NCBI RefSeq assembly: GCF_963921235.1
Contig: NC_086102.1
Span: 141,918,001 to 141,982,000, forward strand
From: Mobula hypostoma
Taxonomy: Eukaryota
Reading direction: 5' to 3'
DNA: 64,000 nt
This document shows, one piece after another, positions 1 to 62,180 of this stretch (position 1 is the first letter of the stretch; each line of letters begins with the position of its first letter). Made by a program: the position numbers and the translations under genes. The notes below the pieces were generated by a model. It had not been told where the DNA came from. It saw nothing but the letters and a program-made list of their open reading frames with translations, and ran no database searches.

Positions 1-579
1 TCCAAGGCTAGGGGCCTTGGACTAGTTGTCATAATAAGATAATGGGACATTTACTTAAAGTTGAGGTGCTGAAAATTTTCTTCTCACTGAAATAGGCAAA
101 TCAACAACCTAGTAAGGTCGTAGCAAAATTACTGTAGTGTGTGTGTCATCTCATAGAACTGGCTGAAATAATAATCTCAGATGTAACCTCCTTAAGCATT
201 AAGATTTCCCCAGAAGGAAGGAAATGGATAGATAGCGTTAGGGAGGTTTTTAATGTCATAAGAAGTATGGATAAGTTGGAGGCTCACAGTAATTTTCACA
301 GGGTAGAGGAGTCTAAAATTAAAGGACATAGATTTAGGATGAGAGGGGAAAGAGGGGTCCTGAGGAGCACATTTTTCACACAGAGCATGGTGGGTATATG
401 GACCAGACTACCAGAAGAATTTGTAATGGCTGGGAAAATTTCAACGTTTGAATGACATTTAGACAGGTACATGGATTGCAAATATGCACCAATGCAGGCA
501 AGTAGGACCTGCACAGGTGAGCAAATTGGTCAACACGGCTGAGTTGGGCTGAGGGGCCTGTTACTGTGCTGTATAACAT

Positions 580-2488
580 GACCCTAATACTGCTCGGAAA
601 GAACCTTCCAAACTCTCAACCTCCACCACGAAAAGGACAAGGGCAGCAACAGCATGGAAGTACCTCCACCTGGAAGTTGCCTCTAAGCCACACTCACACA
701 TTTGAAGATACGCAAATAGCTGAAGTTAAAATGGATATGTTAAAAGGTGTTATAAAAATATTTTTCACAACTTGAAAAATACTGGCAATGATAATATTCA
801 TAATTATTGACATTAAAAATAAACTTGCCTTCATCCATGCCTATTAATACATGTCAACAATTTTCTTAAAAGTCCTGAAAAAGGGCTCACATTTTTGACA
901 GAAGTTAAAACTTACCTCTTATCTAAAGGAGAAATCACAAATGGCCTATCAAAGTATTGCTTGGTTACAAACTATATACAAAAATTGTATGCATTCCACA
1001 TCTAATTTCCACTCACTTAGATATCCACTATATACCTACAGTGGTAGAAAGAAGAGCAGAAAGGATGCTGTAAGGGCATGAAAGGATGCAAAGCACAACT
1101 GATAATAGATTCTGTAATTCCAAATCAAGCCTGGAGGAAAAGCAGAAGTCTTTCATGTTGTTATATTTGATTCTGTCCCAGACACATGGTTAATAGGAGT
1201 TCTTTATATATATAACCTACACCCAATATTTGTTAAATTCCTATAACATCTGATGAAGCATTTTGTCTGTTAACAAGACAAAAAAAAAATACAACCACCA
1301 TTATCAAAATAAATTGAGGCATTTTCCAGGGTGATTCTGTAAGCCCACTATAGTTTTGTCTAGCTTTAAATCTGCTCTCTAATTTACTGAATCGGATGAA
1401 AATAGGGTACCAGATAAGAAATAGATTACACCATGACACATGGACGATTTGAAATTATATACTCCTTTATCAATAAAGTCAGATAAAACTTTTGAGGGTA
1501 TAGTTTCATCAATGAAAACAAGGTTCAGTATTTTATGTTAGCATATGCAATTTTGATAAGTAATCACACGACTAAACTTAAATGAATGCCAAACCCAGAT
1601 AAATGAAGAAAATATCACTATAGAAGAAAAAGATAACCAATGGAAGAGCATGACCCTCCACGGAACACATCCCCATGATCTGAGCAGACCAGTTGTCAAC
1701 AAGAAAGCATAAAATACTTGACTCTGTGTTGGAAACCTCTTCCCAGAAATAGAAGGATTTCTTGTGGCATTACAGGAGCAGTTTGATTACACAAATAATT
1801 ATCAAAAATACATAATAAAAGACCAAAGAATTCAAGACAACAGAAGCAGAAAATGCAAGGAGAAACCAGAAACAATCCAGCATATTACAAGATCCTGTAA
1901 CATTTTAACGCAATCAGATTATTCACACAGGGATAACCAAGAGGCAAACACAATTTACCAAAATCTTGCTTTAAAATACAAACTCATAAAGGACCCCACA
2001 CCTTACTATAAATCAAGCCTTATCCAGTCTTAGAGTCACAGGTCGATAAATTTTATTCCGACTGATTCGTTGTTACTGATAGGACAATCCATAATAACAG
2101 TGTGGATGTAATAATACAGGATAAACAAGCTAGAACACCATACAGTACTTAGCAGATATGGCCATTCCAAACACACATAACATGCAGAAATCAATAAGTG
2201 AAAAACACCAGAAATATGCTGAATGAAAAGAGGAAATTGAATGACTGTGGATCATGAGTATATATCCCATTAGTAATATCTTCAATTGGTATCTTCCCAA
2301 AGCCACTACAGAATTGCATTAAACAATTAGGGATAGATGACAATATCTACGAAAGCTTCAGAAAGCGACAATACTAAACACCACTAGAATAGTCCGAAAG
2401 TTCATAGCAATTGAGAAATGAGTGTGCTTGGCTATGCCCGTGCCTCAGCTTTTACCAGCTTGAGCTAAGAAAAAAAAATTAAAAATAA
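580..2488 (+). mobile_element. degraded R4/Dong-clade non-LTR retrotransposon (RT plus restriction-like endonuclease), copy A
   Basis: Broken frames give EEQKGCCKG..GCK.QLIIDSVI, FDSVP, GIFQGDSVSP, MDDLKLY, CRKC..ETIQHI..SC..HRxNQ, D.II.DK; A-rich 3' tail near 2470-2488. Confidence 0.75.
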
Positions 2489-3945
2489 GCAATATGTATC
2501 GAGACCATGTGATGAAGAGTGTTTGAATGTGAGTCCATAGGTTGTGGAAGCTGGTCAGTGATACAGCAAGTGAGTTGAGTGAAGTTATCCCCACTGGTGC
2601 TTGAAAGTTAATAACAGTTCCTGAACCTGCTGGTGTGAGTCCTGAGGTACCTGAATCTTCTTCCTGATAGCAGCAGTAACAAGAAAGCACGGCTTGGTTG
2701 GTAGGGGTCCTTGATGATTGATGTTGCTTTCCTATGACAAAGCTCCATGTATCTGTGCTCACTGGTGGGAAGAGCTTTACCTGTGATGGATTGGGCTGCA
2801 TTCATTACTTTTTGTAGTAGTTTACATTCAAGGATATTAGTGTTTCCATACAAAACCATTTTCAACAAGTCAAGATATTCTCCACCACATATCTAGAGAA
2901 ATTTGTCGAAGTTTTAGATGTCAAGCCGTATCTTCACAATCGAGTATTGCAGGAGGCTAGGCACACAGCTTTGTGGTGCACCGGTGATGCTGGAGATTGT
3001 GGAGGAGAAATTGTTGCCAATTCAAGCTGACTGGGGTCTACAAGTGAAGAAATCGAAGATCCAATTGCACAAGGAGGTGTTGAGGGCAAGGTCTTGAAGC
3101 TTATTGATTAGTTTTGAGGAGATGATGGTATTGAATGCTGAGCTGTAGTCAATAAAGAGCACCTGCTATATACATCTTTGCTGTCCAAATGTTGAAGGAT
3201 TGAGTGAAGTACTAAAGAAATGGAATCTGTTATGGACCTGTTGTGCCAATAGGCAAATTGAAGTGGATCCAAGTCGCTTCTCTGGCAGCAATTGAAATGT
3301 TTCATAATTAACTTCTCAAAATACTTTGATGCTGCAGATTTAAGTGCTTCTGGATGATAGTCATTGAGGCAGACTGCCATGTTCTTCTTAGGCACCAGTA
3401 TAATTAAAGCCTGCTTGAAGCAGATGGATACCTCAGACTGCAGAAGCGAATGGTTAAATATCTCAGTGAACACTCCAGCCAGTTCATCTGGCAAGGTGCC
3501 TCATCTGGGCCAGATGGTTTCTGTGGGTTCGTCCTCCCTGAGGGATTCTCTCATGTTGACCTCAGAGACTGAAATCACAGGGTCATCAGGAGTTGAGGGA
3601 TTTTGTGATGGTTCTTTCATATTTTGATGGTAAAAGTGAGTATTGAAGACATTGAGCTCATCTGGAAGTGAAGCCCTGTTGCCTGATTTCACTTTGTGAT
3701 AGTATTCAAGTCCCGCTGTTGAGGATCCTTCATTGACTCAGGTTGAGCATGGAATTGCCACTTCACTCGTGAGATGGCTTTCCAGAGATTGCACTTGGAC
3801 CTCTCGTAACTTTCTTGGTCACCAGACTTGAATACTTCTGATCTGGTCCTCAGTGGATTGTAGATCTCATGGTTCAGCCAGGGCTCCTGGTTGGGGAAGA
3901 TTCTCAATCGTTTTGTGGGGACACACTCATCGATAACTGTATTGA
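2489..3945 (-). mobile_element. degraded Rex1/Babar-clade LINE, copy A
   Basis: ORF 3108..3494 LAGVFTEIFN..VPKK..CLNDY..DLDPLQFAY; 3' part DP.QP...LLLSGRRFR..T.T.RFRN. Confidence 0.8.
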
Positions 3946-4479
3946 TAAACCACAAGCGTATCAGAAGCAATTATTGATTGATTGGCTTTTCTCACATCAG
4001 AAAAAGGAATTAAAAGCAATGGAATATCACAATGATGGTGAGGAAATTCAGAATGTGGAGGTAATTGAAATGCTAAGTGTATGTGTACAGTTCTTAATGA
4101 CAGGAGAGTGGAAAGCTTTGACTGTTTAACGTGTTCAACAAGCGAAGTGGAGCAAACAAACTGAATTCCGGAGGTAGGAAAACTGCAAGGAACCACAGCG
4201 AAAGGCAGTATTAACTCTCCCTTCGATGATCAAATGGGTTCTGAAAGGAGAGAAAACAGAGATTATTGAAAGTAAATCATGATTGACTTCTTTGGCTGAA
4301 GAAGAAGCTGATCAGTGCTGTGTAGAAGAAATTGTATAGATGGATTCCCAAAAGATGTTTGTCAGTTTCATAAGGTGTATCCTCAATTCAGACAGTTTGG
4401 AACAGAGAACCAAAATGCTACTTTAACCTAGGTGAATGGACCTGGGTGATATGCAGCTGCGAATGTTCCTGAACAACTT

Positions 4480-4715
4480 CATTTAAACAACAATTTAAAA
4501 AGCACAACTGTAACAATCCATGATACAACAAAAGTCTTTCTGTTTTTCTACAATGAATGAAAAAAAAGGATTTTGCTGCATTTTGCTGATGTTTAATGTT
4601 GTGTCACCAGAACAACAAGAAACTGCCTAGTGAGGACTTTCTACCCTGCATATAAATACCAACTTGTGTTAGGCAGCGAAACAGTCAGTTGATTACCAGA
4701 CTCACTGTGTTCAAA
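4480..4715 (+). promoter_or_regulatory. crystallin proximal promoter copy 1 (TATA box, putative Maf half-site and Sox-like sites)
   Basis: TATAAATA 4651-4658; AT-rich-preceded TGCTGA at 4584-4589 (large-Maf half-MARE-like); ACAAT/ACAAAAG Sox-like motifs. Block conserved in five copies. Binding is inferred from known c-Maf/Sox control of gamma-crystallins. Confidence 0.7.
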
Positions 4716-6412
4716 ATGGGAAAGGCAAGGGCTACTCAGTAAATGAACTAAATGAGAATCCTTCGTGAACACCTGAGCAACTAATAACACAGATATGTTT
4801 CTTCCCACAGATCATCTTCTACGAGGACAGGAACTTCCAGGGTCGGCACTATGAGTGCAGCTCCGACTCTGCCGACCTCTCCCCTTACTTCAGCCGCTGT
4901 AACTCCATCCGTGTCGAGAGTGACTGGTGGGTGTTGTACGAGAGACCCAACTACATGGGATACCAATATGTCCTGAGCAGGGGAGAGTATCCTGACTACC
5001 AGCGCTGGATGGGATTCAATGACACAATCAGGTCATGTCGCACCTACCCTTACGTAAGTTTCAAATTTTCAGGGGATTTGATTTATTTTCAGTTTGGCTC
5101 TGAAAATGGAGAATTTGCCTTGCTAGAGCCTAACTGTTATCAAAAAATGCCTGAATGTCTTAAATTGCAATGACATTTCAAGGTGGAGGAGGAGGTAGTG
5201 GTGAGTTTCTTAAGGAGCATTAAGGTGGACATGTTCCCAGGGCCTGATGGAATATATCCCTGGTAATTGAGAGAGGCAAGAGATGGGATAGTTGGAACCT
5301 TGATCAACATCTTTACGTCTTTTCTAGCTCTCTGGAGTATTACATTCAATTTTGGTCACACCGTTATCGGAATGATGTTGAATGTTTGGACAGGGTGCAG
5401 AGAAGGCTTTTCAGGATGCTGCCTGGTTTAGAGGGCATGTGCTGTAATGAGAGGTTGAGCAAACTCGAATTATTTTTCTCTGAAGCAGCGGAGTTCGAGG
5501 TTTATAAGATTATGAGAGGCATAGATGTAGTAGACGAACAGTATCTTTTCCCAGGGTTTAAATATCTCATACTAAAGGACATACATTTTAGGTGAGAGGG
5601 TGTATGTTCAAAGGAGATGTGAGGGAGAACTTTTTACACAGAATGAAGTGGGTGGTGGTATGAGCAGCCTAGGCTGTTATGAGAGGCAGGTATGTCAGGG
5701 ACTTTTAAGAGATGGCTACATAGGCACATTAATGTGAGGGAAATGGAAGGATATGGACATTGTTTAGGCAGAAGGGATTAGTTTAGATGGCCATTTAACT
5801 CAAATAGCCAACTAAATTTAAATTTACTAATTTAATTGTTTGGGCACAACATTGCGGGCCCAAGGACCTTTTCCTATGCTCTATGTTCTATGTCCTAAAT
5901 GCAGAATTTTTCCTATTTATTTTTACTGTCTTTTTATTTAACTTCCATTTGACCCAGCAGCAATGCTAGTTGGAAGCATATTTGAGGCATATAGTTAATG
6001 AAATGATCAAATTACATCTGACTCTATTTCCCATTGAAGTCGATCACCATTCTGTGAATAAGTTTTGAGATGTCATGTAAAATAGGTGAATACTCTATAA
6101 AACATCATGAATAAAACTCTGTGTTTCCTATTCCAGTACCGAGGTGGAAACTACAGAATGAGGATTTACGAAAGGCCTGACTTTGCAGGGCAGATGATGG
6201 AGTTCATGGACGACTGTTCCTCTGTCTACAATCGTTTCCGCTACCGTGACATCCACTCCTGTCAGGTGCTGGATGGTTACTGGATCTTCTATGAACATCC
6301 CAACTACAGAGGCCGACAGTACTTCCTGACACCTGGGGAATACAGGAGGTATAGTGACTGGGGTGGCTACAACTCAATGATCGGGTCCTTCAGGCGCATG
6401 AGGGACTTCTAA
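4716..6412 (+). CDS. gamma-crystallin copy 1 (elasmobranch gamma-S1/gamma-M-like), 175 aa; join(4716..4724,4811..5053,6137..6412)
   Basis: Exon 1 ATG GGA AAG (MGK); exon 2 [53 protein letters not shown]...SCRTYPY; exon 3 [18 protein letters not shown]...GSFRRMRDF*. Four Greek-key motifs, phase-0 introns (GC-AG 86 nt; GT-AG), TATAAATA at 4651, AATAAA at 6463. Confidence 0.96.
5170..5900 (+). mobile_element. CR1 3' fossil in intron 2 (paralogous pieces in intron 2 of all copies)
   Basis: [35 protein letters not shown] (ORF 5386..5595); ends in a ctatgttctatg tail. Confidence 0.8.
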
Positions 6413-6849
6413 AAGTTGCTCTTGAAAATCTAATTTTATCTTGTTGAAATACTTATGGAGGCAATAAAATACCTTTGATGACACTATCAGCTCATTTGGT
6501 TCATTTCTTCTGATCCCACTGGACAGAATCCGGGATAGTAATCATAATCTGAGGACCACATTAAATTGTTTTACCTCAGTTGGTTCCAGTTAACAGATAA
6601 CATTATGATGATTCATAAGAGGCTAAAAAATATAAAATTAATAGAAAGCTGTTCTCTGCCTCTTGTGTTATTGTGTTCATTGTGAGGTGCTGAGCTCCAT
6701 TTTTTATTTATTTCTAGTGAATTTATTGAGTACAAATATCTACCTTTATGAGTTCTATTCTTCTGAGGGTTTTGTGAAATGACTTCACAAGAAATGAAAC
6801 ACCAGAGTTAGAGACGTGGATTGAAAGTGCACAGAAAGCAATGCTTTTC

Positions 6850-18489: not shown

Positions 18490-21400
18490 GGTTCCGGGGA
18501 CGTCATCGTTCAGAATGGCAGCTTAAATCAACAGCCCCTCCGGAAAAACGCATATTTTGCCCCGTTAATCCATCAAATACAAGATCTTTCGAAAATATCT
18601 GAATTGATAAGGGGGGCAAGAATGGGGAGAAAGAATGCGGAGCTGATGGAAGAGAGAGGTGCAGTGCATGGCCCTCCTACACCTACGCGTGGCGGCAAAG
18701 CTGAAAGTCCAAAACTATATAAAACAGCAACTCAATGATACCAAGTCAGAGCTCGCCAATGTCAATCAGAAAATAGCGGTGGCAGAGACTGGAATTGAAA
18801 AGGTGGAAGATCGCGTGCAAAACCTGGAACAGATACTAAGTAAGACGATAAAAATATTAAATCAACAGGAAAGTAAATTGCTTGGCCAGGAGGGAAGACT
18901 GCGACAGAAAAATATCGGGATTTATAATGTTTCCGAAGGAGCGGAGGGGTTGTCGATGATGGACTTTGTAGACAAGCTGCTGAGGGAAGTGCTGGAGCTT
19001 CCCCAGACTATGGAGATTGAAATTGAGAGGGCACATCGTTCGCTCGTCCGGCAGCCTCCCAGAGACGGATAAAGTAAACCGCGCTCAATTGTACTTAAAT
19101 TTCTTCGATTCAAGAGCAAGGTGGAGATTCTACAAAGGGCCTGGGGTAAGGAGAGGGTTTTTTGGAACGGGAAGTTAATATACTTAGATCATGATTACCT
19201 TCCGGTGGTCCTACAGAAACGGAAAAAGTATTCTGAAGCGAAACGAATATTAAAGCAAGAAAAGATTAAATTCCAAACCCCGTACCCTGCTAAACTGAAG
19301 GTATTTTACCAAGAAGGGATACGACTATACCAGACAGTGGAGTAGGCAATTACAGACATGAACAATAGAGGACTGCCCATTAGCCTGGTCAAACCAAGGG
19401 AAAGTCTGGCTGAGCAGTTATCCCGATCTGCTTGGGAAATAGAGAACCTATAAAGCAGGGGACGGGAGTAGGACGAGAGAAGGATATTAGGAAGAGACCG
19501 TCAGTTCCCCGAGAGCAGCCCTCACCTCCTCCAGAAGAGCCATAAGGTTTGGCTAACTTTAAAAGTGCTGATAAACTAAATGGAAGTAAAAATAGACAGT
19601 GATATACTTATCTCGAGAAATACATGTTATAATGTGGATTTTATATTACTCAATTTTTTAAAAGTCATTTATTCATTCCTTTTTCCCCACCTAAATGAGA
19701 AATGGGAGGAATACACAGGGAAATAATTTCTGTTTAATGGACATAGTTTTTTTTTACTTACTTTTATTGGTACTGCAGCGGGGGCCCTCAACCCACAGGT
19801 AGGAGGGGCTATCCCTTTTCTTCTAGCTCAACCCAGGGTCATCTAGAGACCCCAGCCTTGGAATCACACCTTCGTTACCTTTTTTTAATTATTCACGTTT
19901 CTTGGCTCTTATTTGTTCAGGGGGTAGATCGATTAAGTTATATTCTGCAAATTTCAATGATATACTAACAGATAAATACACATGGCTAAGGACAAAGTAA
20001 AATTCATTTCTTTTAATGTCAATGGGCTGTTCAATCCAGTCAAGCGCAGTAAAATTCTGTCAAAAATGAAAAAAAGAACAAGCCCATGTAGTATATTTAC
20101 AGGAAATTCACTAAGTGATAATGAGCATGGAAAATTAAAGAGAAAGGGGTTCACTAATTTGTTTTTCCCCTCATAAATCAGGACATAGAAGAGGAGTTGC
20201 TATTCTCATCTCAAGTAAGCTAAATTTTGAAAAAGTATTCAAAATGGGAGATAAGGAGGGCAGATATATTCTGGTAAGGGGGAATATAGATGGAAATACA
20301 GTTACTTTATTGAATATATGCGCACCCCCAGGAAGTGATATTAGTTTCTTCCAGAAAATTACTAATACTATGGTAATGGAAACAGAAGGTCTCTTGATAT
20401 GTGGGGGAGACTTAAATTTACAATTACAACTAAAGTTAGACTCTTCCAGTAGAAAAACTTATGAAACAAAGTCCTTACATAAGGAAGTTAACACTCTTTT
20501 TGAGGATGCTGGTCTAATTTATATATGGAGGGACCTTCTCCCCGACAGAAGGGATTACACTCATTATTCTGCCCCTCATTCCGTATATACAAGAGTAGAC
20601 TATTTCATAACATTTGGAAAAGATAGAGACAAAATAATCACCTGTGGAATTGGGACAACAGATGTAAGCGACCATGCACCTATATATTTATCTGTTGATT
20701 TTGACCTACAACCAAAGAATACTATTTGGAAACTAAATTCAAGTCTACTCAATGATCCCTATTTTAAGGAACAAATTAAAAAAGAAATTGGTCTTTACTT
20801 AGAATTCAATGATAATGGAGAGGTTTCACCTCCCATTTTATGGGATATTCTGAAGGCTGTCTTAAGAGGGAAAATTATAGCGATATCTTCATAAAAGAAA
20901 AAAAAAGGAATAAAACATTAGAGGAAATATAAAATAAGCTGAAGGAACTAGAAAAAAACACAAATTGAGTTTGGCACAGGATACACTAGACGAAATTTAA
21001 AAAATAGAAATGAAATTAACAGTTTGGCTACTCAAGAAATTAGAAAATAATTATTGTTTCTGAAACAGAGACACTATGAAAGTGGATCTAAATCTATGAA
21101 AATACTGGCGTGGAAACTGGAAAAAAAGATAGCAGAAAATACGATTCATAGAATAAGGGATCCAAGAACAAAAGTGATAAAAAAAAGCTAAGTGAAATTC
21201 AAGAAGCTTTTGAAATGTTTTACAAAATTCTATATTCCGAAGTTCCAGGAGGAAGCATAACCCAAATTGACACCTTCCTGAATTCTTTAGAGTTACCCAC
21301 TTAAGGAAAGAACAAAATAGAACAATGACGGCTGACATAACTGAAGCTGAACTAAAAACTGTAATTAGTAGGCTTAAATTAAGCAAGTCACCAGGATAAG

Positions 21401-23908
21401 TTGTTTACACGGCAGAGTGGTATAAAGAGTTTAGAAGTGAGTTAATTCCTATTTTACTGCCACACTGAACTGGGCCCTGAGAAAGGCGCAAATGCCACCC
21501 AGCTGGAAGGAGGCAATAATCTCAGCTATACCGAAAGAAGGCAAGGATAAAATGGAATCTGGGTCATTTAGACCAATATCTGTTCTTAATGTGGATTATA
21601 GAATATTTACTTCCACCATGGCCAAATGATTAGAAGAGTTTCTACCCACAGTGATACATAATGATCAGACAGGTTTTATACAACAACGCCAAACACAAGA
21701 CAATATACGAAGGACACTTCATATTATGGAACATATTTAAAAAAATGAAATTGAAGCAATAGTGATAAGCATGGATGCTAAAAAGGCATTTGATTCGGTT
21801 AATTGGAATATTCTTTACAGAGTTTTACATAGATTTGGTCTACATGACACAATTATTAAAACTATTCAGGCTCTATATGACAATGCTACTGCCAGGATTA
21901 AAATGAATAGATATTTATCTAATAGTTTTACCCTAGAAAGGGGCACAAGACAGGGTTGTGCATGGTCACTGCTACTCTTTGCATTATATCTGGAACCATT
22001 AGCTCAATACATCAGACAAAATGAAGATATCAGGGGAATTACTACTAAAGGGACAGAGCATAAATTGGCCTGTTATGCGGATGACATTTTGATCTATCTA
22101 GGGCAACCAACAGACTCTTTACCTAAATTGATGCAATCCTTTGAACAATATGGCCAATTATCAGGATACAAGATCAACATAGATAAAACCCACCTACTTT
22201 CATATAACTAAAGCCCACCAAGAGAAATTTTAAGTAGATATCCTTGGGCATGGCAAACAGAGTCTGTCAAATATTTGGGCATCACTATGCCAAAAGATTT
22301 GTCAAGATTATCAGAATGCAATTATCAGCCTATATATAAAAAAATAAGGAAGATATAACAAGATGGAACCTAATTCCTTTTCTTGGTCTCAGTTTAAGGA
22401 TTGCATCTATTAAAATGAATATACTGCGCAGACTACTATGTCTCTTTCAGACCCTACCAATAGAGATTAACCAAAATCAATTCAATGAATGGAACAAAAT
22501 GCTATCAAGATATATATGGCAAGGTAAAAGGCCTAGGGTTCATCTCAAAACTTTGCAATTATCCAAGGAAAAGGGGGGATGGGGCCTACCTTCTCTTAGA
22601 GATTACTATTTTGCAGCACAGTTGAGAGCAGTGATATGCTGGTCCAACCCATCATATGACGCACAATGGAAAAACATTGAGGAGAGGATACTTTCCATCC
22701 CCATACAGGCAATTTTGGCTAATAACAACCTACAAAGTTACATAAATAATATTGACAATCTGTGGGTGAATGAAGTCTTAAAATATGGAAAATTATTATA
22801 AAAGAATATAAACTAGAGAGAGACATTGCAATTCTTAAATGGTGTGCATATGACTCAGATTTTACGCTGAATAAACTGGATGCTAGATTTAAAACACTTA
22901 CTAGAAAAACAAGACTTTTACCGGTATTTACAGATGCAACCGTATGTTAATAGGACGGTTAAAAATGTAACCAAGGCAAGTACATGTCTGATAGAGCTAT
23001 TTAGAAAAGCATATAATTCAGACAACAGTATTAGAATAATTTTAAGCGTTTATAAGGGTTTGTCAAATCTTAAAACACACTCGACTTCATACGTTAAAAC
23101 AAAATGGGAGAAGGAAGGAGGGATAATAATATCTGAGGAAGACTGGACAATAATATGGAGGTATCAATGGAAGTGTACCAGTTCACAGAAATGGAGGGAG
23201 CTCGGGTGGAAAAACTTGATAAGATATTTTATTACACCCTCTCAGAAATCCCATTATAATAGTAATCCCCCTGCTTGCTGGAGAAATTGTGGAAATCAAA
23301 ATGCAAACCATTATCATATTTTCTGGGAATGCCCTGTTATCAAAGACTATTGGAGTGGGATACATAATGCCCTACGAGACATCTTTAAATGTGAAATACC
23401 CTTAGAGAGTAAGACCATATATTTTGGGTATATACTTCAAGAATGATTGAAAAGAGATAAATATTTAATGAATGTACTGCTGGTGGCTGGTAAAAAGACC
23501 CTTCCCAGGAAATGTTTATCTCAGGAGAGCCGAACTTTAAATGTATAGATGGAAATTACAATGGACATTTACAAAATGGAGAAGATAACAGCATCTGTTG
23601 AACATAAGTTGGAACAATTTTATTCATACTGGAAAAATGGTTTAACTATATACCACCTCATAGGCCTGATCTTATTCTCACAAGTCAATGAATATGTTGT
23701 TAAAAAAAATCACTCCCTACTTTGTACATAGTTTTCTTCTTTCGATTGTTCTATCTTTCCTTTCTATAAGTGTATACCTCAGATAAATATTATGTGGAGA
23801 TTTGTGACAAATATGTTTATATAATATATATGTACAGTATCTGAAACACATTTTATGGAAATGTTTGTTTGATGATGAAATTCAATAAAAAATAAATTAC
23901 AAAAAAAA
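18490..23908 (+). mobile_element. near full-length L1-clade LINE (ORF1 ~18620-19500, ORF2 ~19982-23660, both disrupted), 16-bp TSD
   Basis: ORF1 coiled coil, NIGIYNVSEG..IERAHR..YPAKLKV; ORF2 FISFNVNGL, GGDLN, RVDYF, SDHAP, DAKKAFD, RGTRQGC, YADD, CWRNCG..HIFWEC; aataaa plus A tail; TSD cctatctatga(c/t)tctg at 18474-18489 and 23909-23924. Confidence 0.95.
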
Positions 23909-36714: not shown

Positions 36715-39700
36715 AATTGTAAAATGCCCACAATTGTTGAAGTAGTCACTGTGATATTACATAATTATTGATATAAAATTTACTTACTTTCATTCGTAAC
36801 TATTAAAACATATCAACAATTTTCTAAAAATCCTGAAAACGTGTCCAAATTATTGACAGAAGGTAAAACAAGTCTCTTACTTAAAGGAGCAAGCTAAAAT
36901 GACCCTCAAAATGTTGTCCTAGCACTTGTTTACAAACTATATATAAAATTGTAACATTTAACATCTTGTAATTAATTGATACTCACATAAATAATCACAC
37001 AAGTATACCTACAGAAGAGCAGAAAGGATGCTGTAAGTGTATGAAAGGATGTAAATAACATCTGATAATAAATCCTGTAATTCTACTCAAGCACAGAGGA
37101 AAAGCAGAAGTCTTTCATGTTGTTATATTTGATTCTGTCCCACACTCATGGTTAATAGAAGTTTTAATATATATAAACTACACCCGATACTTCTGAAATT
37201 CCTGCAACATCTGATGAAGCTTTGGTGTGCTATAATCACCCTATCTATTTACAACCGAAAAAGAACCGTTTTTATCAAAATAAATGGAGACATCTTTCAG
37301 GGCATTTTTCTAAGCCGTTTATGGTTTTATCTAGGTTTAAACGGGCTCTCTAATTTACTGAATTGGATGAAAATAGGGTAGCAAATCAGGAAAAAACAAG
37401 TTATGCTTTAACACAGCTCTAGTACATGGATGATTTGTTGAAATTATACGCTCCATCATTAGTAAAGCTAAAGAAATTAAGTCAAATAGTAGAACTATTT
37501 TCAAAAGATATAAAGAAGAACTTTGGACTGGATAAATGCAGAACATTAATCATAAAGAAAGGTGCAAACAGAGCTGGCAGAATGGAAAACAGAGCAACAG
37601 GATACAGTACAACCGTTGGATGACTTTGAAACATCTAAGTATTACAGTGTGTTAAAGGGAAACCTTCCGAAAGAATTTACTTCATGGCTGAAGAACCTCT
37701 GCTAAGCAGAGCTCAACAGTAAAAAATACAACAAAGGCAATAAACACTTTTACTATGTCAATTTTAACATATTCTTTTGGCATAATATCTTGATCCAAAA
37801 CCCATTTGGAAAAATTACAAAGAAAAATAGGCACTGAAATGACAAATTTTGGAAAACACTGTGTACACTCAAACACACTTGTGGGACAGAATGAGGAAGA
37901 GGAATAACAGACATAAAACAGTCACAACAGTCAAATAAAACTTCGGAGGATATACTTTCATCAACAGAAACAGGATGCAGCACTCCACGTGAGCACATGC
38001 AATTCTGTTAAAAGATGTGTACCACTAAAATTAAGTGAAAGCACAACCCAGATAGAGGAAAAATTATCACTACAGAAGAAAATGTTAACCAGTGAAAAAA
38101 TATGGCCCTCCATGGAAGAAACCATAGAAACCATACCATAGAAACTACAGCACAGAAACAGGCCTTTTGGCCCTTCTTGGCTGTGCCGAACCATTTTCTG
38201 TCTAGTCCCACTGACCTGCACACGGACCATATCCCTCCATACACCTCCCATCCATGTATCTGTCCAATTTATTCTTAAATGTTAAAAGAGAACCCGCATT
38301 TACCACCTCGTCTGGCAGCTCATTCCGTACTCCCACCACTCTGTGTGAAGTAGCCCCCCCAATGTTCCTTTTAAAATTTTTCCCCCTCACCCTTAACCCA
38401 TGTCCTCTGGTTTTTTTCTCCCCTTGCCTCAGTGGAAAAAGCCTGCTTGCATTCACTCTATCTATACCCATCATAATTTTATATACCTCTATCAAATCTC
38501 TCCTCATTCTTCTACGCTCCAGTGAATAATGTCCCAACCTATTCAACCTTTCTCTGTAACTGAGTTTCTCAAGTCCCGGCAACATCCTTCTAAACCTTCT
38601 CTGCACTCTTTCAACCTTATTTATATCCTTCCTGTAATTTGGTGACCAAAACTGAACACAATACTCCAGATTCGGCCTCACCAATGCCTTATACAACCTC
38701 ATCATAACATCCCAGCTCTTATACTCAATACTTTGATTAATAAAGGCCAATGTACCAAAAGCTCTCTTTACGACCCTATCTACTTGTGACACCACTTTTA
38801 GGGAATTTTGTATCTGTATTCCCAGATCCCTCTGTTCCACTGCACTCCTCAGTGCCTTACCATTAACCCTGTATGTTCTACCTTGGTTTGTCCTTCCAAC
38901 GTGCAATACCTCACACTTGTCAGTATTAAACTCCATCTGCCATTTTTTAGCCCATTTTTCCAGCTGGTCCAAGTCCCTCTGCGGGCTCTGAAAACCTTCC
39001 TCACTGTCTACTACACCTCCAATCTTTGTATCATCAGCAAACTTGCTGATCCAATTTACCACTTTATCATCCAGATCATTGATATAGATGACAAATAACA
39101 ATGGGCCCAGCACTGATCTCTGTGGCACACCACTAGTCACAGGCCTCCACTCAGAGAAGCAATTCTCTACCACCACTCTCTGGCTTCTTCCATTGAGCCA
39201 ATGTCTAATCCAATTTACCACCTCTCCATGTATACCTAGCGATTGAATTTTCCTAACTAACCTCCCATGCGGGACCTTGTCAAAGGCCTTACTGAAGTCC
39301 ATGTAGACAATATCCACTGCCTTCCCTTCATCCACTTTCCTGGTAACCTCCTCGAAAAACTCCAATAGATTGGTCAAACATGACCTACCACGCACAAAGC
39401 CATGTTGACTCTCCTTAATAAGCCCCAGTCTATCCAAATGCTTGTAGATTCTGTCTCTTAGTACTCCCTCCAATAACATACCTACTACCGATGATAAACT
39501 TACTGGCCTATAATTTCCCAGATTACTTTTCGATCTTTTTTGAAACAACAGAACAACATGAGCCACTCTCCAATCCTCCGGCACCTCACCTGTAGACAGC
39601 GACATTTTAAATATTTCAGCCAGGGCTCTTGCAATTTCAACACTAGTCTCCTTCAAGGTCCGAGGGAACACCCTGTCAGGTCCCAGGGATTTATCCACTT

Positions 39701-40600
39701 TAATTTTCCTCAAGACAGCAAGGACCTCCTCCTTTTCGATCTGTACAGTTTCCATGATCTCACTACTTGTTTCCCTTAATTTCATAGACTTCATGCCAGT
39801 TTCCTTAGTAAACACAGACACAAAAACCCTTTTTAAGATCTCCCCCATTTCCTTTGGTTCCACACATAGCCGACCACTCTGATCTTCAAGAGGACCAATT
39901 TTATCTCTTACAATCCTTTTGCTCTTAATATACCTGTAAAAGCTCTTTGGATTATCCTTCACTTTGACTTCCAAGGCAACTTCATGTCTTCTTTTAGCCC
40001 TCCTGATTTCTTTCTTAAGTATTTTCTTGCACTTCTTATACTCCTGAAGCACCTTATTTACTCCCTGCTTCCTATACACATCATACAACTCCCTCTTCTT
40101 CTTTATCAGAGTTGCAATATCCCTTGAGAACCAAGGTTCCTTATTCCTATTCAACTTGTCTTTAATCCTGACAGGAACATATAAATTCTGCGCTCTCAAA
40201 ATTTCTGCTTTGAAGGCTTCCCACCTACCGATCACATCCATGCCAGAGAACAACCTGTCCCAATCCACGCTTTTCAGATCCTTTCTCATTTCTTCAAATT
40301 CGGCCTTCTTCCAGTTAAGAACCTCAACCCTAGGACCAGATCTATCCTTGTCCATCTGCATGATCTGAGGAGTTCCTTGAGGCATACACACAAGAAATTA
40401 TCAAAATACATAATAAAAGACCAGTAAATCACGACCATTAATGCAGAAAATGCCAAGAGAAAACAGAAACAAACTTAAAAGACACCACACCTTACTACAA
40501 TTACAAGCCTGATCCAGTTTTAGAGCCAGATTTGCACAAACTACGTTATGACAAGATTAAGTCTATCCATCCGTATATAATATTACAGGATAAATACTGA
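36715..40600 (+). mobile_element. R4/Dong-like fossil copy E, split by a young CR1 (pieces ~36715-38119 and ~40356-40600)
   Basis: IFQG..S.LWFYLGLN.LS.LLN, MDDL.KLYA..FGLDKC; flanks catggaaga|catctgcatgatctgag rejoin as in paralogues. Confidence 0.75.
38120..40355 (-). mobile_element. young 5'-truncated CR1 LINE with uninterrupted RT frame (ORF 38202..40391, 729 aa)
   Basis: NYRPVSL, QHGF..GRSCLTNL, YMDFSKAFDKVPH, GVPQRSVLGP, KFADDTK, RPNLEYCVQFWSP; (tttctatgg)n tail; endonuclease domain missing. Confidence 0.95.
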
Positions 40601-56785: not shown

Positions 56786-57350
56786 AGACCATAGACCATA
56801 AGACATAGGAGCAGAATTAGGGCATTTGGCCCATCAAATCTGGTCCGCCATTCAATCGTAGCTGATCCTTTTTTCCCCTCCTCAGCCCCACTCCCCAACC
56901 TTCTCCCCGTAACCTTTGATGCCGTGTGCAATCAAGAACCTATCAATCTCTGCCTTAAATGCACTCAATGACCTGGCCTCCACAGCTGCCTGTGTTATAA
57001 ATTCCACTAATTCACCATCCCCTGGCTAAAGCAATTTCTCCATTTCTCTATTTTATATGGACGGCCCTCTATCCTGAGGCTGTGCCCTCTTATCCTAGAC
57101 TCCCTCATCATGGGAAACAACCTTTCCACATCTACTCTGTTTAGGCCTATCAACATTCAAAATTTCAACTTCAATGAGATCCCACTCATCCTTCTAAATT
57201 CCAGCGAGTACAGATCCAGAGCTATCAAACATTACTTGTATGATAAACCTTCCATTCCTGGATTCAACCTTGTGAATCTCCTCTGAACCCTCCGCAATGC
57301 CAGCACATCATTTCTTGGATAAGGAGCCCAAAACCGTTCATAATACTCAA
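56783..57350 (-). mobile_element. CR1-family 3' end
   Basis: (cttatggt)-type tail cataagaccatagaccataagacatagg; SRIRGHSLRI..; typical CR1 3' UTR. Confidence 0.75.
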
Positions 57351-58115
57351 CATCAGTGTGACCAAAGAGTTGATTGTGGACTTCAGAAATGGTAGGATGA
57401 GGCTACATGAACCAAATTTCATAGAGGGATCAGAAGTGGAGAGAGTGAGAGGTTTCATGCTCCTGGGTGTCAAGATCTTTGAGGATCTAACCTGGTCCCA
57501 ACATATCGATACAGTGATAAATAGGGAAAAATAGCGGTTGTATTTCATTTGGAGTTTGAAGAAATTTGGCATGTCACCTAAAACCTTGAAAACTTCTACA
57601 GATATACTGTGGAGAGCATTCTGACAGGCTACATCACTCTCTGGTATCGGGGGCGGGGGGGGCCGGTGTTTCTAATGCACAAGATCGAAAGAAGCTATAG
57701 AAGGCTGCAAAATTAGTCAGCTCCAGCTTGGGTTCAAGGCTCCATTGTATCTAAGACATCTTCAGGGAGTGGTGCCTCTGAAAGGTGGTGTCCATTATTA
57801 AGAGCCCCCTTCACCCAGGACTTTGCCCTCTTCTCATGGCTACCATTAGGAAGGAGGAACAGAAACCGGAAGGCATGCACTCAGTGATTCAGGAACAGCT
57901 TCTTCCACTCTGCCATCCAATTTCGAAATGGATATTGAACCCATAAACACTATCTCACTTTTATTTCTTGCACTATTTTTAATTTAACTATTTAATATCC
58001 ATATATATTCTTACTGCAATTGATTTATTTATTTTTTCTTTCTATAATATCATGTATTGCATTGTACTGCTGCTGCTAAGTGAACAAATTTTATGAGATC
58101 TGTCAATGATATTAT
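57350..58115 (+). mobile_element. Rex1/Babar 3' part, sense orientation
   Basis: TKELIVDFR..IEGSEVERV..LGVKI.EDLTWSQHI; FY..TVESIL.G.IT.WY; AT-rich 3' UTR. Confidence 0.8.
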
Positions 58116-58158
58116 TTGAGAAGTTAATTAATTGATTCTGAGTCAATTGAGAAATGAT

Positions 58159-59936
58159 TGTCACAACCATGGATTTGGCAGTGCAGTAGATACGGCAATT
58201 GCGTTTGTAAATATGCATGTGTCAGCTAATTATTATTTAATCATGATAGTTAACAAAGTTCACGTGCCAGTGATAATAACCCTGATTCTGATTTAACTCC
58301 ATACTTGTTGATGTAGTGCTTGTTGAGACTTGGACAGAGCACAGCAACCCTTCGCTGCCTGTCTGCTTTGGCCTTCCCTGAGATATTGGACTGTCAAGTC
58401 AAGCGACTCCGAAGGCTAGCGGTATTCATTTAATGTTAAGATGTTCTATTCAGCCGCAACGTGGGCTTCGTTTTCCATTTGAGAGTTTTAGTTAATGGCC
58501 CTGTTTGTCCTAGCGTTTATTGTTTATTTTTCCCTTTAACATTGTTCGCATTAAAGTCTGTGAACTCTCGACCTGCTTCACTGTCTCTCACTCCACACCT
58601 GGGCCATATCCGAACCTGGTAACAACTCCTCTCTTGTGACAGTTATCATGAGCACCTCTGAGGGAAGTCCTACTATGAGAGCAGAGAAATATGTGAGAGA
58701 CTGAACGCTGAAGGAATAGTTCCATCTGCTTTGACATCAATGATGATCTGATTGCACCTGAAACTCTGGCATTTCTTCATTGTGAATCCAGTACTTCCGA
58801 AAAGCTCCTTTATACTGTACCAATAAATAACTCAGACACGGGCCAAGAACATCCATCTTATTGTGGTCCACAGGTCTGTCTCTGTTGAATATAATGCAGT
58901 AACAAATGATTGTCTGACTCCAAAAAATAAAACAAAATGCTTGATGCTCTCTGCTTCATGTAGTAAGTAGATACATGCTTAGATAACCGTAACTTATGCA
59001 CAAAATACTCTTTGTACTGGTCATTTGAGCTAAATATTGATTGAAACCCATTGGCCTTCCACTCATCTCTAAGAGTGGTCAAGGCTCTAGCCGCAGTAGC
59101 TATGGGTGATGCACAACATATTGATTGTGGTTAAGGAGGTGTATTGAAAGGTAATCATTTCATGCTGATAAAAGACAAAGTATTCAACAATGAGAAACCC
59201 CTCACATGACTCCAATTGAAATTACATTTGAATCTTTTCAAAAACTGACCAGGTGGGCCATTGAGATGATATTTTGACAGTGCTTCACAGTGCTTCATTA
59301 TTCAGCAATTAGATTTGATCCCTGCCCCATCACAAGCCATCACTCTCTCACCTAACCCTGCCACCTTTAATGCCCTGTGAAAAGACGGGCTACCAGAGAA
59401 AGGACAAGCAAATGGTTCATCTCAGCATTCAGTCTCTCAAATATTTCTCTGCTCTCATAGTAGGACTTCCCTCAGAGGTGCTCATGATAACTGTCACAAG
59501 AGTGGAGTTGTTACCAGGTTTGGATATGGCCCAGGTGTGGAGTGAGAGACTCTGAAGCAGGTTGAGAGTTCACAGACTTTAATGCAAACAGTGTTAAAGG
59601 GAAAAATAAAACAATAAACACTAGGCCAAACAGGGCCATTAACTAAAACTCTCAAATGGAAAACGGAGCCTCCACTGGGGCTGAAAGGAACACCTGAACA
59701 TTAAACGAATACCACTAGTCTTCAGAGTCAGTTGACTCGACAGTCTAATTTCTCAGGGAAGGCCGAAACAAACAGGCAACGAAGCGTTGCTGTGCTCTGT
59801 CCAAGTCTCCACAAGCACTACGATGACAAGTATGGAGTTAAATACACTCACGATTAAATAATAATTAGCTGACACGTGCATATTCACAAGCAGATTTTGC
59901 CGTATCTACTGCACTGCCGAATCCATGGTTGTGAGA
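58159..59936. mobile_element. 1.78-kb element with long inverted LTR-like arms (58159-58711 and 59422-59936) and 5-bp TSD ATGAT
   Basis: Arms are reverse complements (roughly 85-90% by eye); termini TGTCACA...TGTGAGA; atgat at 58154-58158 and 59937-59941; non-coding 710-bp spacer. Confidence 0.8.
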
Positions 59937-59952
59937 ATGATTGTGTTTTAGC

Positions 59953-62180
59953 AAGCAATAAATATAGAGAACATGAGATGAAGAGTCCTTGAAATTGAGT
60001 CTATAGGTGGTGGGAACAGTACTGTGATGGGCTAGTGAAGTTAAGTGAAGTTATCCCCTCTGGTTCAAGAGCCTGATGCTTGCGGGGTAACAAGTGTTCT
60101 TAGATATGCTGGTGTAAGTCTTGAGGCTCCCATACCTTCTTCCTGGTGGCAAAGGTGAGAAGAGAGCATATCCTTGATGATGAGGGTTCCTGATGATGGA
60201 TGCTGCTTTGCTGCGACAACGCTCTGTGTAGATGTGCTGAATGGTGGGGAGGGCTTTACCCATAATGGACTGGGCCGTATCCATTACTTTTTGGAGTATT
60301 TTCCATCCAAAGGTATTGTGTTTTTCACTACCTGGCCATGATGCATCCAATCAATAGGCTCTCCACAACACATCTATAGAAGTTTGTCAAAGTTTTAGAT
60401 GTCATGCTGAACTTTCTCAAACCTCTAAAGTAGAGGAGCTGCCCTACTTTCTTTATTATTGCACGACATTGATCAGCCACCTGTATTCAGCCAGATGAGT
60501 CAAACATGATTTACCTTTAATAATCTCTGCTGGGCAGAGTGCAGGTCCTCTGAAATGATAACACAAAGGAATTTAAAGTTGCTGAGCCTCTCCATCTCTG
60601 ATCCCCCGATGAGGGCTGTCTCATGGCACTCCGGTTTCCTCCTCCTGAAGTCAGTAATCAGCTTCTTGGTCTTGCCTGTGGTGTATCTAGCTGATGGAGT
60701 TTAGGGAGGAGAATTTGTTGTCAATCCAAACTGACTGGGATCTGCAAGTGAGGAAGTTGAGGATCCAATTACACAAAGAGGCATTGAGACCAAAGCATTG
60801 AAGCTTACTGATTAGTTTTGAGGGGATGATGATATTGAATGCTGAGCTGTAGTCCATAAAGAGTATTCTGTTGTATGCACCTTTCCAGAATGGAGTGAAG
60901 AACCAGTGAAATGGAACCTGCTGTGGACCTCTTGTGCCAGTTGGCAAAATGGAGCAGATCCAGGTCACTTCTTGGGCAGGAGTGGAATCAGAATCAGAAT
61001 CAGATCAGGCTTGTTATCACCGATGTGTCATGAGATATGTTTACCTAGCAGCAGCAGTACAATGCAATACATGATAGTATAGAAAGAAAGAAATAAATCA
61101 GTAAATCAACTACAGTAAGTATATATTTATATGTATATTCAATAGTTAGATTACAAATAGTGCAAAACAGAATTAATATAAAAAATATTGAGGTAGTGTT
61201 CATAGGTTCAATGTCTATTTAGGAATTGTATGACAGAGGGGAAGAGGCTGTTCCTAACACACTGAGGGTGCGCCTCAGGCTTCTGTACCTTCTGCCTGAT
61301 GGTAACAATGAAAAGAGGGCACGTCCTGGGTGATTGTGGTCCTTAATAATGGACACCGTATTTCTGAGGCATCACTACTTAAAGATGTCTTGGATACGAT
61401 GGAGGTTAGCACTCAACATGGATCCGACTAATTTTGCAACTTTCTGCAGCTTCTTTTGCTCCTGTGTAGTAGCCCCCACCCACCCCACCCCCATACCAGA
61501 CAGTGATGCAGCCTGTCAGAATGCTCTCCACAGTATATCTATAGATATTTTTGAGTGTTTAAGGTCACACACCAAATCTCTTCCGACTCTTAAGGAAATA
61601 TATCTGCTGTCTTGCCTTCGTTATAGCTGCATCGATGTGTTGGGACCAGGTTAGAACCACAGAGATCTTGACAACCAGGAACATGAAACTACTCACTCTC
61701 TCCACTCCTGATCCCTCTGTGAGGATTGGTTCATGTTCCCTTGTCTTACGCTTCCTGAAGTCCACAATCAGCTCTTTCAACTTACTGAGGTTGAGTGCAA
61801 GGTTGTTGCTGTTACACCACTCAACTAGCTGGTATATCTCACTCCTGTATGCCCATTTTGATCTGGGATTCTACCAATAATGGCTGTGTCATCAGCAAAT
61901 TTCTAGATGGCTTTTGAGCTATACCTAGTCACACAATCATGGGTATAGAGGAAGTAGAGCAGTGGGCTAAGCACACACCGCTGAGGTGCACCTGTGTGGA
62001 TCATCAGTGATGAGGAGATATTATTATCAATCCAAACAGAATGTGGTCTTCTAGTTAAGAAGTTGCACATCCAATCGCAGAAGGAGGTGCAGAGGTCCAG
62101 TTTCTGCAACTTATCGATCAGGACTCTGGACCGATGGTGTTAAATGCTGAGATATAGTCAACAAACAACATCCTGGCATG
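59953..62180 (-). mobile_element. two nested or adjacent Rex1/Babar fragments (~59953-60985 unit fossil; ~60986-62180 younger copy with (gattct)n tail)
   Basis: [14 protein letters not shown]; TGAPQ.CVLSPLLY.LYTHDC; KELIVDFRK; aatcagaatcagaatcag at ~60986. Confidence 0.8.

Follow-up and report, generated by a model that had tools for sequence, protein, structure and literature searches.

The fold-back element in the window, which is the whole 64,000-nucleotide stretch analyzed here (C18:141918001-141982000 of a 3.48-Gb genome, presumably that of a cartilaginous fish), consists, as we read it with good confidence, of two inverted chromodomain Gypsy LTRs around 807 bp of DNA from contig C45; it likely arose by a U-turn switch of the reverse transcriptase (RT) and was likely inserted by the integrase. 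The element itself is a dead, single-copy insertion. The recurrence, the rate, the capture of host DNA and the donor of such fold-back LTRs were established in the present analysis. A literature search, largely of papers outside subscription journals (subscription papers may describe such copies), gave no account of recurrent U3-U3 insertions.

Layout, captured DNA and parent family

Two inverted arms, 58159-58711 and 59422-59936, had been noticed in a sequence-only reading of this DNA, and BLAST bears them out (83% identity, with a 40-bp indel); 710 bp separate them, and the 5-bp TSD proposed at the outer ends is also present. The features are, in window positions:

58154..58158, no strand: left 5-bp TSD copy, identical to 59937-59941; the empty site fits the paralogous crystallin units
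58159..58624, plus strand: left LTR of the chromodomain Gypsy family, U3 end outward, with a later 40-bp insert (from family comparison)
58251..58290, plus strand: 40-bp insert of the left arm only, absent from the right arm and from family copies
58322..58332, plus strand: LTR bases 124-134, complement of the family primer-binding site; predicted, from sequence, as transcript start and self-primer
58625..58711, minus strand: inverted copy of the 87 host bases that adjoin the right LTR, ending in the 10-nt turn-point microhomology (58702-58711)
58712..59421, plus strand: spacer, host DNA copied from C45:47636357-47637053 (68 differences in 693)
59422..59508, plus strand: host DNA that continues the spacer in the donor and meets the terminal CA of the LTR without a primer-site remnant
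59509..59936, minus strand: right LTR, inverted, U3 end outward, 87-90% identical to family copies
59937..59941, no strand: right 5-bp TSD copy, identical to 58154-58158

The arms differ at 48 of 426 aligned LTR positions and at 3 of the 87 positions of the inner extension, and the terminal dinucleotide at the outer end of the right arm carries one substitution. Against family copies the left arm is 81% identical overall and 87-89% downstream of the 40-bp insert. Repeat depth at the insert is high, and it is likely a retroposon tail gained after integration. Inside the element there are no direct LTRs with a primer-binding site and a polypurine tract (PPT) but inverted LTRs around host DNA. 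The element has no ORF of at least 130 aa, and an Rfam search of window positions 57000-61000 gave no match. Folding prediction points to a strong hairpin (inner 961 nt, z -19); the dsRNA that the sequence-only reading expected of a transcript across the element is likewise a prediction from folding.

The paralogous units at the insertion site are beta/gamma-crystallin genes. The earlier reading held that the empty site can be seen in the window, and this is correct in that the rejoined site differs by no more than 3 substitutions from the 19-nt motif found in the paralogous units at 2408, 26779 and 34352 and, outside the window, in one more; what it missed is the loss at the right and the short remnant at the left. 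Just right of the insertion site the paralogous unit is without about 50 nt, and homology picks up again at 59953. On the left, 15 nt of the unit remain before another repeat begins.

The surroundings are repetitive as well. The window (1-64000), with L015 and L016, is a tandem array of ~8-kb beta/gamma-crystallin gene units that are 70-85% alike, and the array extends past both window ends. Another repeat brackets the fold-back in two copies of opposite orientation (57345-58096 and 61028-61796, 79%); since more copies are found in L016, these are likely independent insertions. A 731-aa open frame at 38202-40397, which we take to be a CR1-type LINE RT, is in part 96% identical to a piece that lies 9 kb from the C45 donor. 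The broken frames of one long LINE occupy 18647-23446, and its pieces are presumably ORF1-, endonuclease- and RT-like.

Whether the spacer has a single-copy donor had been posed as a check, and it has: only two places in the genome carry it, the window element and C45:47636357-47637053. Positions 58702-59508, the spacer together with the right 87-bp extension, match the donor without a break as an 807-bp copy, and the left extension must therefore be an inverted second copy of the 87 bases that adjoin the right LTR. The 10-nt inverted match is already present in the donor, its halves lying exactly at both sides of the turn, and random junctions in the donor's 20 kb reach such a match in a fraction of 2e-5 of 200,000 trials. 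Beyond these 10 nt the similarity continues, imperfectly, for a few bases more, at which the element has the short-arm version. At the other junction the host DNA joins the LTR exactly at its terminal CA, with no shared bases. In a second fold-back with host DNA, L003, 2-3 bases are common at the LTR end. At L012 2140-2191 the donor in the assembly has several changes where contigs of two other organisms carry the bases of the window element, so that the older state at these bases is the one retained in the captured copy.

Contigs of public DNA runs cross the joint between host DNA and LTR, which shows that the structure is not an assembly artefact but is real and old. In two labeled organisms these contigs reach 36 and 43 letters into the LTR. 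In a third labeled organism the contigs extend 29 letters past this joint and 20 past the fold-back joint, both below the 31-letter bridging rule of the tool. For run X9 only the LTR joint was seen and no contig over the right flank of the donor; this is a lead, not evidence.

The LTR unit of the arms is their outer 427 bp, and its first 16 bases have 1020 exact matches in the genome, where a first look gives about 4,000 candidates for the family. Family copies include solo LTRs with 5-bp TSDs, 5' LTRs followed by a common primer site and 3' LTRs that follow the PPT. It had also been asked whether the arm LTR flanks a gag-pol as direct repeats. It does in L048, a decayed full-length element (291-6840) with direct LTRs, Pfam matches to RVT_1, RT_RNaseH, rve and SH3_Tf2-1 in the order RT-RNase H-integrase, and an RT whose best PDB matches are Ty3 RT. 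A chromodomain (PF00385) is found at the integrase C-terminus with E-values of 2.5e-11 in L206 and 1.6e-6 in L048.

The primer-binding site of the family is complementary over 11 nt to LTR bases 124-134, which lie about 300 nt before the end of the LTR; it is exact in L010, L095, L098, L143, L144, L163 and others and decayed in many. The sequence-only reading noted that no TGG primer site lies beside the arms, which is true but uninformative, because the primer site of this family is complementary to its own LTR. Such complementarity is described as a mark of Tf1/sushi self-priming (PMC4600332, PMC10085805). The 5' end of the LTR fits the Sushi att motif, as given in the available text of PMC3601003, fully and the 3' end fits it at 6/7 positions. 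In a minimum-free-energy fold of the predicted 5' leader of L048, one decayed copy, the primer site does not pair with the 5' end, and the three-duplex pretzel is not recovered. Based on these sequence features the parent family appears to work like the Tf1/sushi chromoviruses and, on the features tested, to belong with them; a transcript start is predicted at LTR base 124.

Two defective forms of the family were also seen. In a non-autonomous derivative (L209, L223, L239, L244, L251, L264, L265) the LTR is followed by the first 75 internal bases, non-coding internal DNA, the PPT region and an LTR; its internal part has 361 first-look candidates, and 560 bp in L061 that seemed foreign are internal sequence of this derivative. 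Seven other copies (L204, L206, L207, L237, L238, L252, L262) have one common deletion against L048 (about 2970-4223), and since so many copies carry it, this pol-defective form was likely amplified in trans.

Recurrence and junctions of U3-outward fold-backs

Another check was whether the arm-spacer-arm architecture recurs. The window unit is single-copy, yet the mirror-ended layout with a U-turn junction is carried by 27 loci, or about 23 independent events if the four near-identical C12 copies are counted as one and likewise the pair L144/L145. The class was sampled by genome position and by junction patterns, so that the counts describe a sample and not a census, and the evidence for recurrence consists throughout of old genomic copies. 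Sampling from the U3 end covered 99 loci for the first 100 listed U3 matches, with the partner of L075 omitted, and 5 of the 99 have an inverted arm that ends in a second U3 terminus (5/80 on C1 and 0/19 on C2). The U3-outward layout thus recurs at about 5% of sampled family loci, a loose rate (95% interval 1.7-11%) given that the C2 sample alone is 0/19. Chance inverted neighbors are expected 0.08-0.34 times in 99 loci and would not have a common outer TSD. Sampling from the U5 end covered 70 loci (30 with 1.5-kb flanks and 40 with 4.5-5.4-kb flanks) and skipped four listed rows that were fetched otherwise, namely the fold-back L007, the two solos of L196 and the second LTR of L251; three of the 70 are U3-outward fold-backs and none is a U5-outward one. 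Extrapolating 5% to the 1020 anchors suggests about 50 fold-backs with an exact anchor genome-wide.

The TSDs could be scored at both ends in 18 of the 27 fold-backs: 10 are exact (one after a 1-base shift), 5 have one mismatch and 3 have two. For comparison, 25 solo loci on C1, a class limited to at most one mismatch, have 15 exact and 10 one-mismatch TSDs. The divergence of the arms is 5-11% outside CpG, within the range of 5'/3' LTR pairs. The window arms are not provably sisters: they take ranks 31 and 3 of 110 and share 2 rare variants, a number that ~13% of random pairs reach in this star-like family.

At least ten different junctions occur, with microhomologies of 2-13 nt. In the primer-site junction the primer site is turned onto LTR 134, with LTR 124-134 as the stem; 9/17 matches to this pattern are true, and the others are 7 ordinary 5' LTRs and 1 different fold-back. 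It is present in two LTR subfamilies, and in 3/3 elements checked both arms carry the same subfamily variant, which suggests that such elements arose repeatedly, each from a single template. L137 is exactly the product expected of plus-strand strong-stop DNA if the primer-site end pairs with its own LTR 124-134. In the gag/R junction, internal base 512 is turned onto LTR 168, and here 9/10 matches are true and one is unrelated. Where the match is imperfect, all 9 carry the bases of the LTR and not the internal ones, for which a matched search gave 0, so the short arm was likely the primer at 512/168; the window junction likewise keeps the short-arm version. Four further fold-backs (L007, L197, L198, L241) have the LTR plus 4-9 primer-site bases at the junction.

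Each long arm leads from U3 across the LTR and on into internal sequence (4 to about 2,450 bases of it) or, in the window element and L003, into host DNA; none among the fold-backs examined reaches the integrase. L197 has about 2.9 kb of gag-pol between its inverted LTRs and an exact TSD. The end points of the short arms are LTR 134, 168, about 250, 276-287 and 330, or a position 4 primer-site bases past the LTR. None of the 25 loci that lack host DNA has a short arm exceeding the LTR and primer site together, which is the length of plus-strand strong-stop DNA.

Several loci have more complex structures. L150, L151, L152 and L160 (C12, 10.5-11.2 Mb) are primer-site fold-backs in which the U3 end lies directly against internal base 5533 of another copy; they are near-identical local duplicates, the product of either nested insertion or auto-integration. 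In L165/L204 a second switch, after the U-turn, leads back into internal sequence. L174 and L114 are complex or internal inversions, with an inverted internal block before the 3' LTR and a short inversion inside the LTR. L196 was rejected as a fold-back, being two solo LTRs, each with its own TSD.

Proposed origin and alternatives

In the route that we propose, an LTR would once have stood at the C45 site, on an allele that is now absent, and its transcript would have read through into the flank; the template of the window element was likely such a read-through transcript. The plus strand would start at the polypurine tract and copy the LTR and 87 flank bases, and its 3' end would then pair with the inverted match ~710 nt further along a sense-strand template and run back to U3. 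This template may have been the growing strand itself (snap-back), another plus strand or RNA. Fill-in would give a linear DNA with two U3 att ends, and the integrase would insert this U3-U3 DNA into the crystallin cluster. For the class in general we envisage a plus-strand template switch during reverse transcription that would lead to two U3 ends and to integration. The second of the two alternatives in the sequence-only reading, an aberrant fold-back cDNA with two identical att ends and captured DNA, finds support in the donor, the turn-point microhomology and the many sister events.

The origin of the captured DNA leaves room for another possibility. There is no LTR-family sequence within 20 kb of the C45 donor, and its right flank is LTR-free in contigs of three labeled organisms; for this reason the source LTR insertion at C45 is assumed, not seen. 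The same observations would fit a direct RT jump from the LTR end onto a co-packaged host RNA, which would give the same fold-back product with no earlier C45 insertion, as would the bases common at the LTR end of L003. The window join, exactly at the LTR CA and with neither common bases nor a primer-site remnant, looks instead as an integration junction would, and other fold-backs that end at the LTR retain primer-site bases. We regard a direct jump as possible, though unlikely.

Another hypothesis is that two incomplete or broken cDNAs with intact U3 ends were joined tail to tail by microhomology-mediated repair of the host before integration. Such joining would yield two U3 ends and a TSD, and it is consistent with the range of junction microhomologies; it leaves unexplained the strong-stop limit on the short arm, the recurrent self-priming-stem junction and the absent U5-outward products, and we find it improbable.

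A non-autonomous Ginger-like or MITE-like DNA transposon with LTR-derived TIRs that moves as a unit was, as a Ginger-like or fold-back transposon, the first alternative of the sequence-only reading. For this speak nine loci with the same gag/R junction, 660-700 bp long and with different TSDs, and L144 and L145, which lie in unrelated flanks and have 98.6% identity over the 591 bp that begin at the LTR start. Yet the window unit is single-copy, the only second copy of its spacer is the donor, its arms are ordinary LTRs that flank gag-pol, the TSD is 5 bp, 8/9 gag/R copies are 9-15% apart, as much as arms within one element, and the loci have at least 10 different junctions. The identity of L144 and L145 stops at homology borders, and the rest of the L145 arm is at 87%, which fits gene conversion. 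Taken together this makes a mobile unit very improbable for the window element. The 98.6% identity between L144 996-1586 and L145/L047 (C91, 3.2 Mb apart) runs from the LTR start to a LINE insertion point and is likely the result of ectopic gene conversion, with movement as a unit the less likely origin.

Two independent LTR insertions with a local inversion and a chance 5-bp match, the case that the earlier reading named as fatal to its proposal, can practically be dismissed: chance inverted pairs do occur, as L196 exemplifies, and the window unit is indeed single-copy, but neither window arm has its own TSD, the common outer TSD restores the paralogous empty site, and the DNA between the arms comes from another contig, so that donor and TSD already refute it.

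Comparison with known systems

Retroviruses and LTR elements can take host DNA that lies immediately downstream of their LTR to a new site by read-through (3') transduction, and the classical products keep direct LTRs. The window element is similar in that LTR-downstream host DNA has moved and differs in that the product is closed by a U-turn. By this fold-back route single-copy host DNA is moved between contigs inside a long hairpin, as the window copy shows.

DIRS elements usually make no TSD. The window element resembles them in having inverted terminal repeats on a retroelement (PMC7192593), but DIRS, as described there, have a tyrosine recombinase and an internal complementary region, while the parent family here has a DDE (rve) integrase and a 5-bp TSD. 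The window element is neither a DIRS nor a Ginger.

With the self-priming chromoviral Ty3/Gypsy elements of the Tf1/sushi type (PMC4600332, PMC10085805) the parent family shares TG..CA LTRs, a 5-bp TSD, a PPT, the RT-RNase H-integrase-chromodomain order and an 11-nt primer site complementary to the LTR. Normal Tf1/sushi copies have direct LTRs, with U3 left and U5 right, whereas the window copy ends in U3 on both sides and encloses host DNA but no coding sequence. The fold-back junctions show that the integrase accepts two U3 ends at a measurable rate in a germ line, and they record, like a fossil map, the plus-strand intermediates of vertebrate self-priming retrotransposons. An annotation tool that relies on direct LTRs would likely overlook such copies or give them a wrong label.

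Like Ginger1 and Ginger2/Tdd, the window element has TIRs that start with TGT and the footprint of a Gypsy-type integrase (Bao et al., 2010, PMC2836005). Ginger TIRs are described there as 40-270 bp long, with TSDs that are mostly 4 bp with a target preference (of the CCGG type in Ginger1; 5 bp in TDD-4/5), and a transposase is encoded. The window arms, unlike these, are 515-553 bp long, with a 5-bp TSD, no ORF and no sign of movement as a unit. In the same source the Ginger1 TIRs are suggested to derive from two LTRs incidentally in opposite orientation, and the chain of events is called unclear. Fold-backs yield the opposite-LTR layout in one step; for the origin of Gingers they offer a concrete mechanism, one that can be counted, of the passage from LTR to TIR, which Bao et al. 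(2010) left open. One could go further and suppose, as a doubtful extension, that the U3-U3 fold-back may be a regular second output of self-priming chromoviruses at a few percent of loci, carrying kilobases of gag-pol or host DNA, and that it may provide a one-step route from a Gypsy retrotransposon to a Ginger-like TIR element, some of the fold-backs later moving as units.
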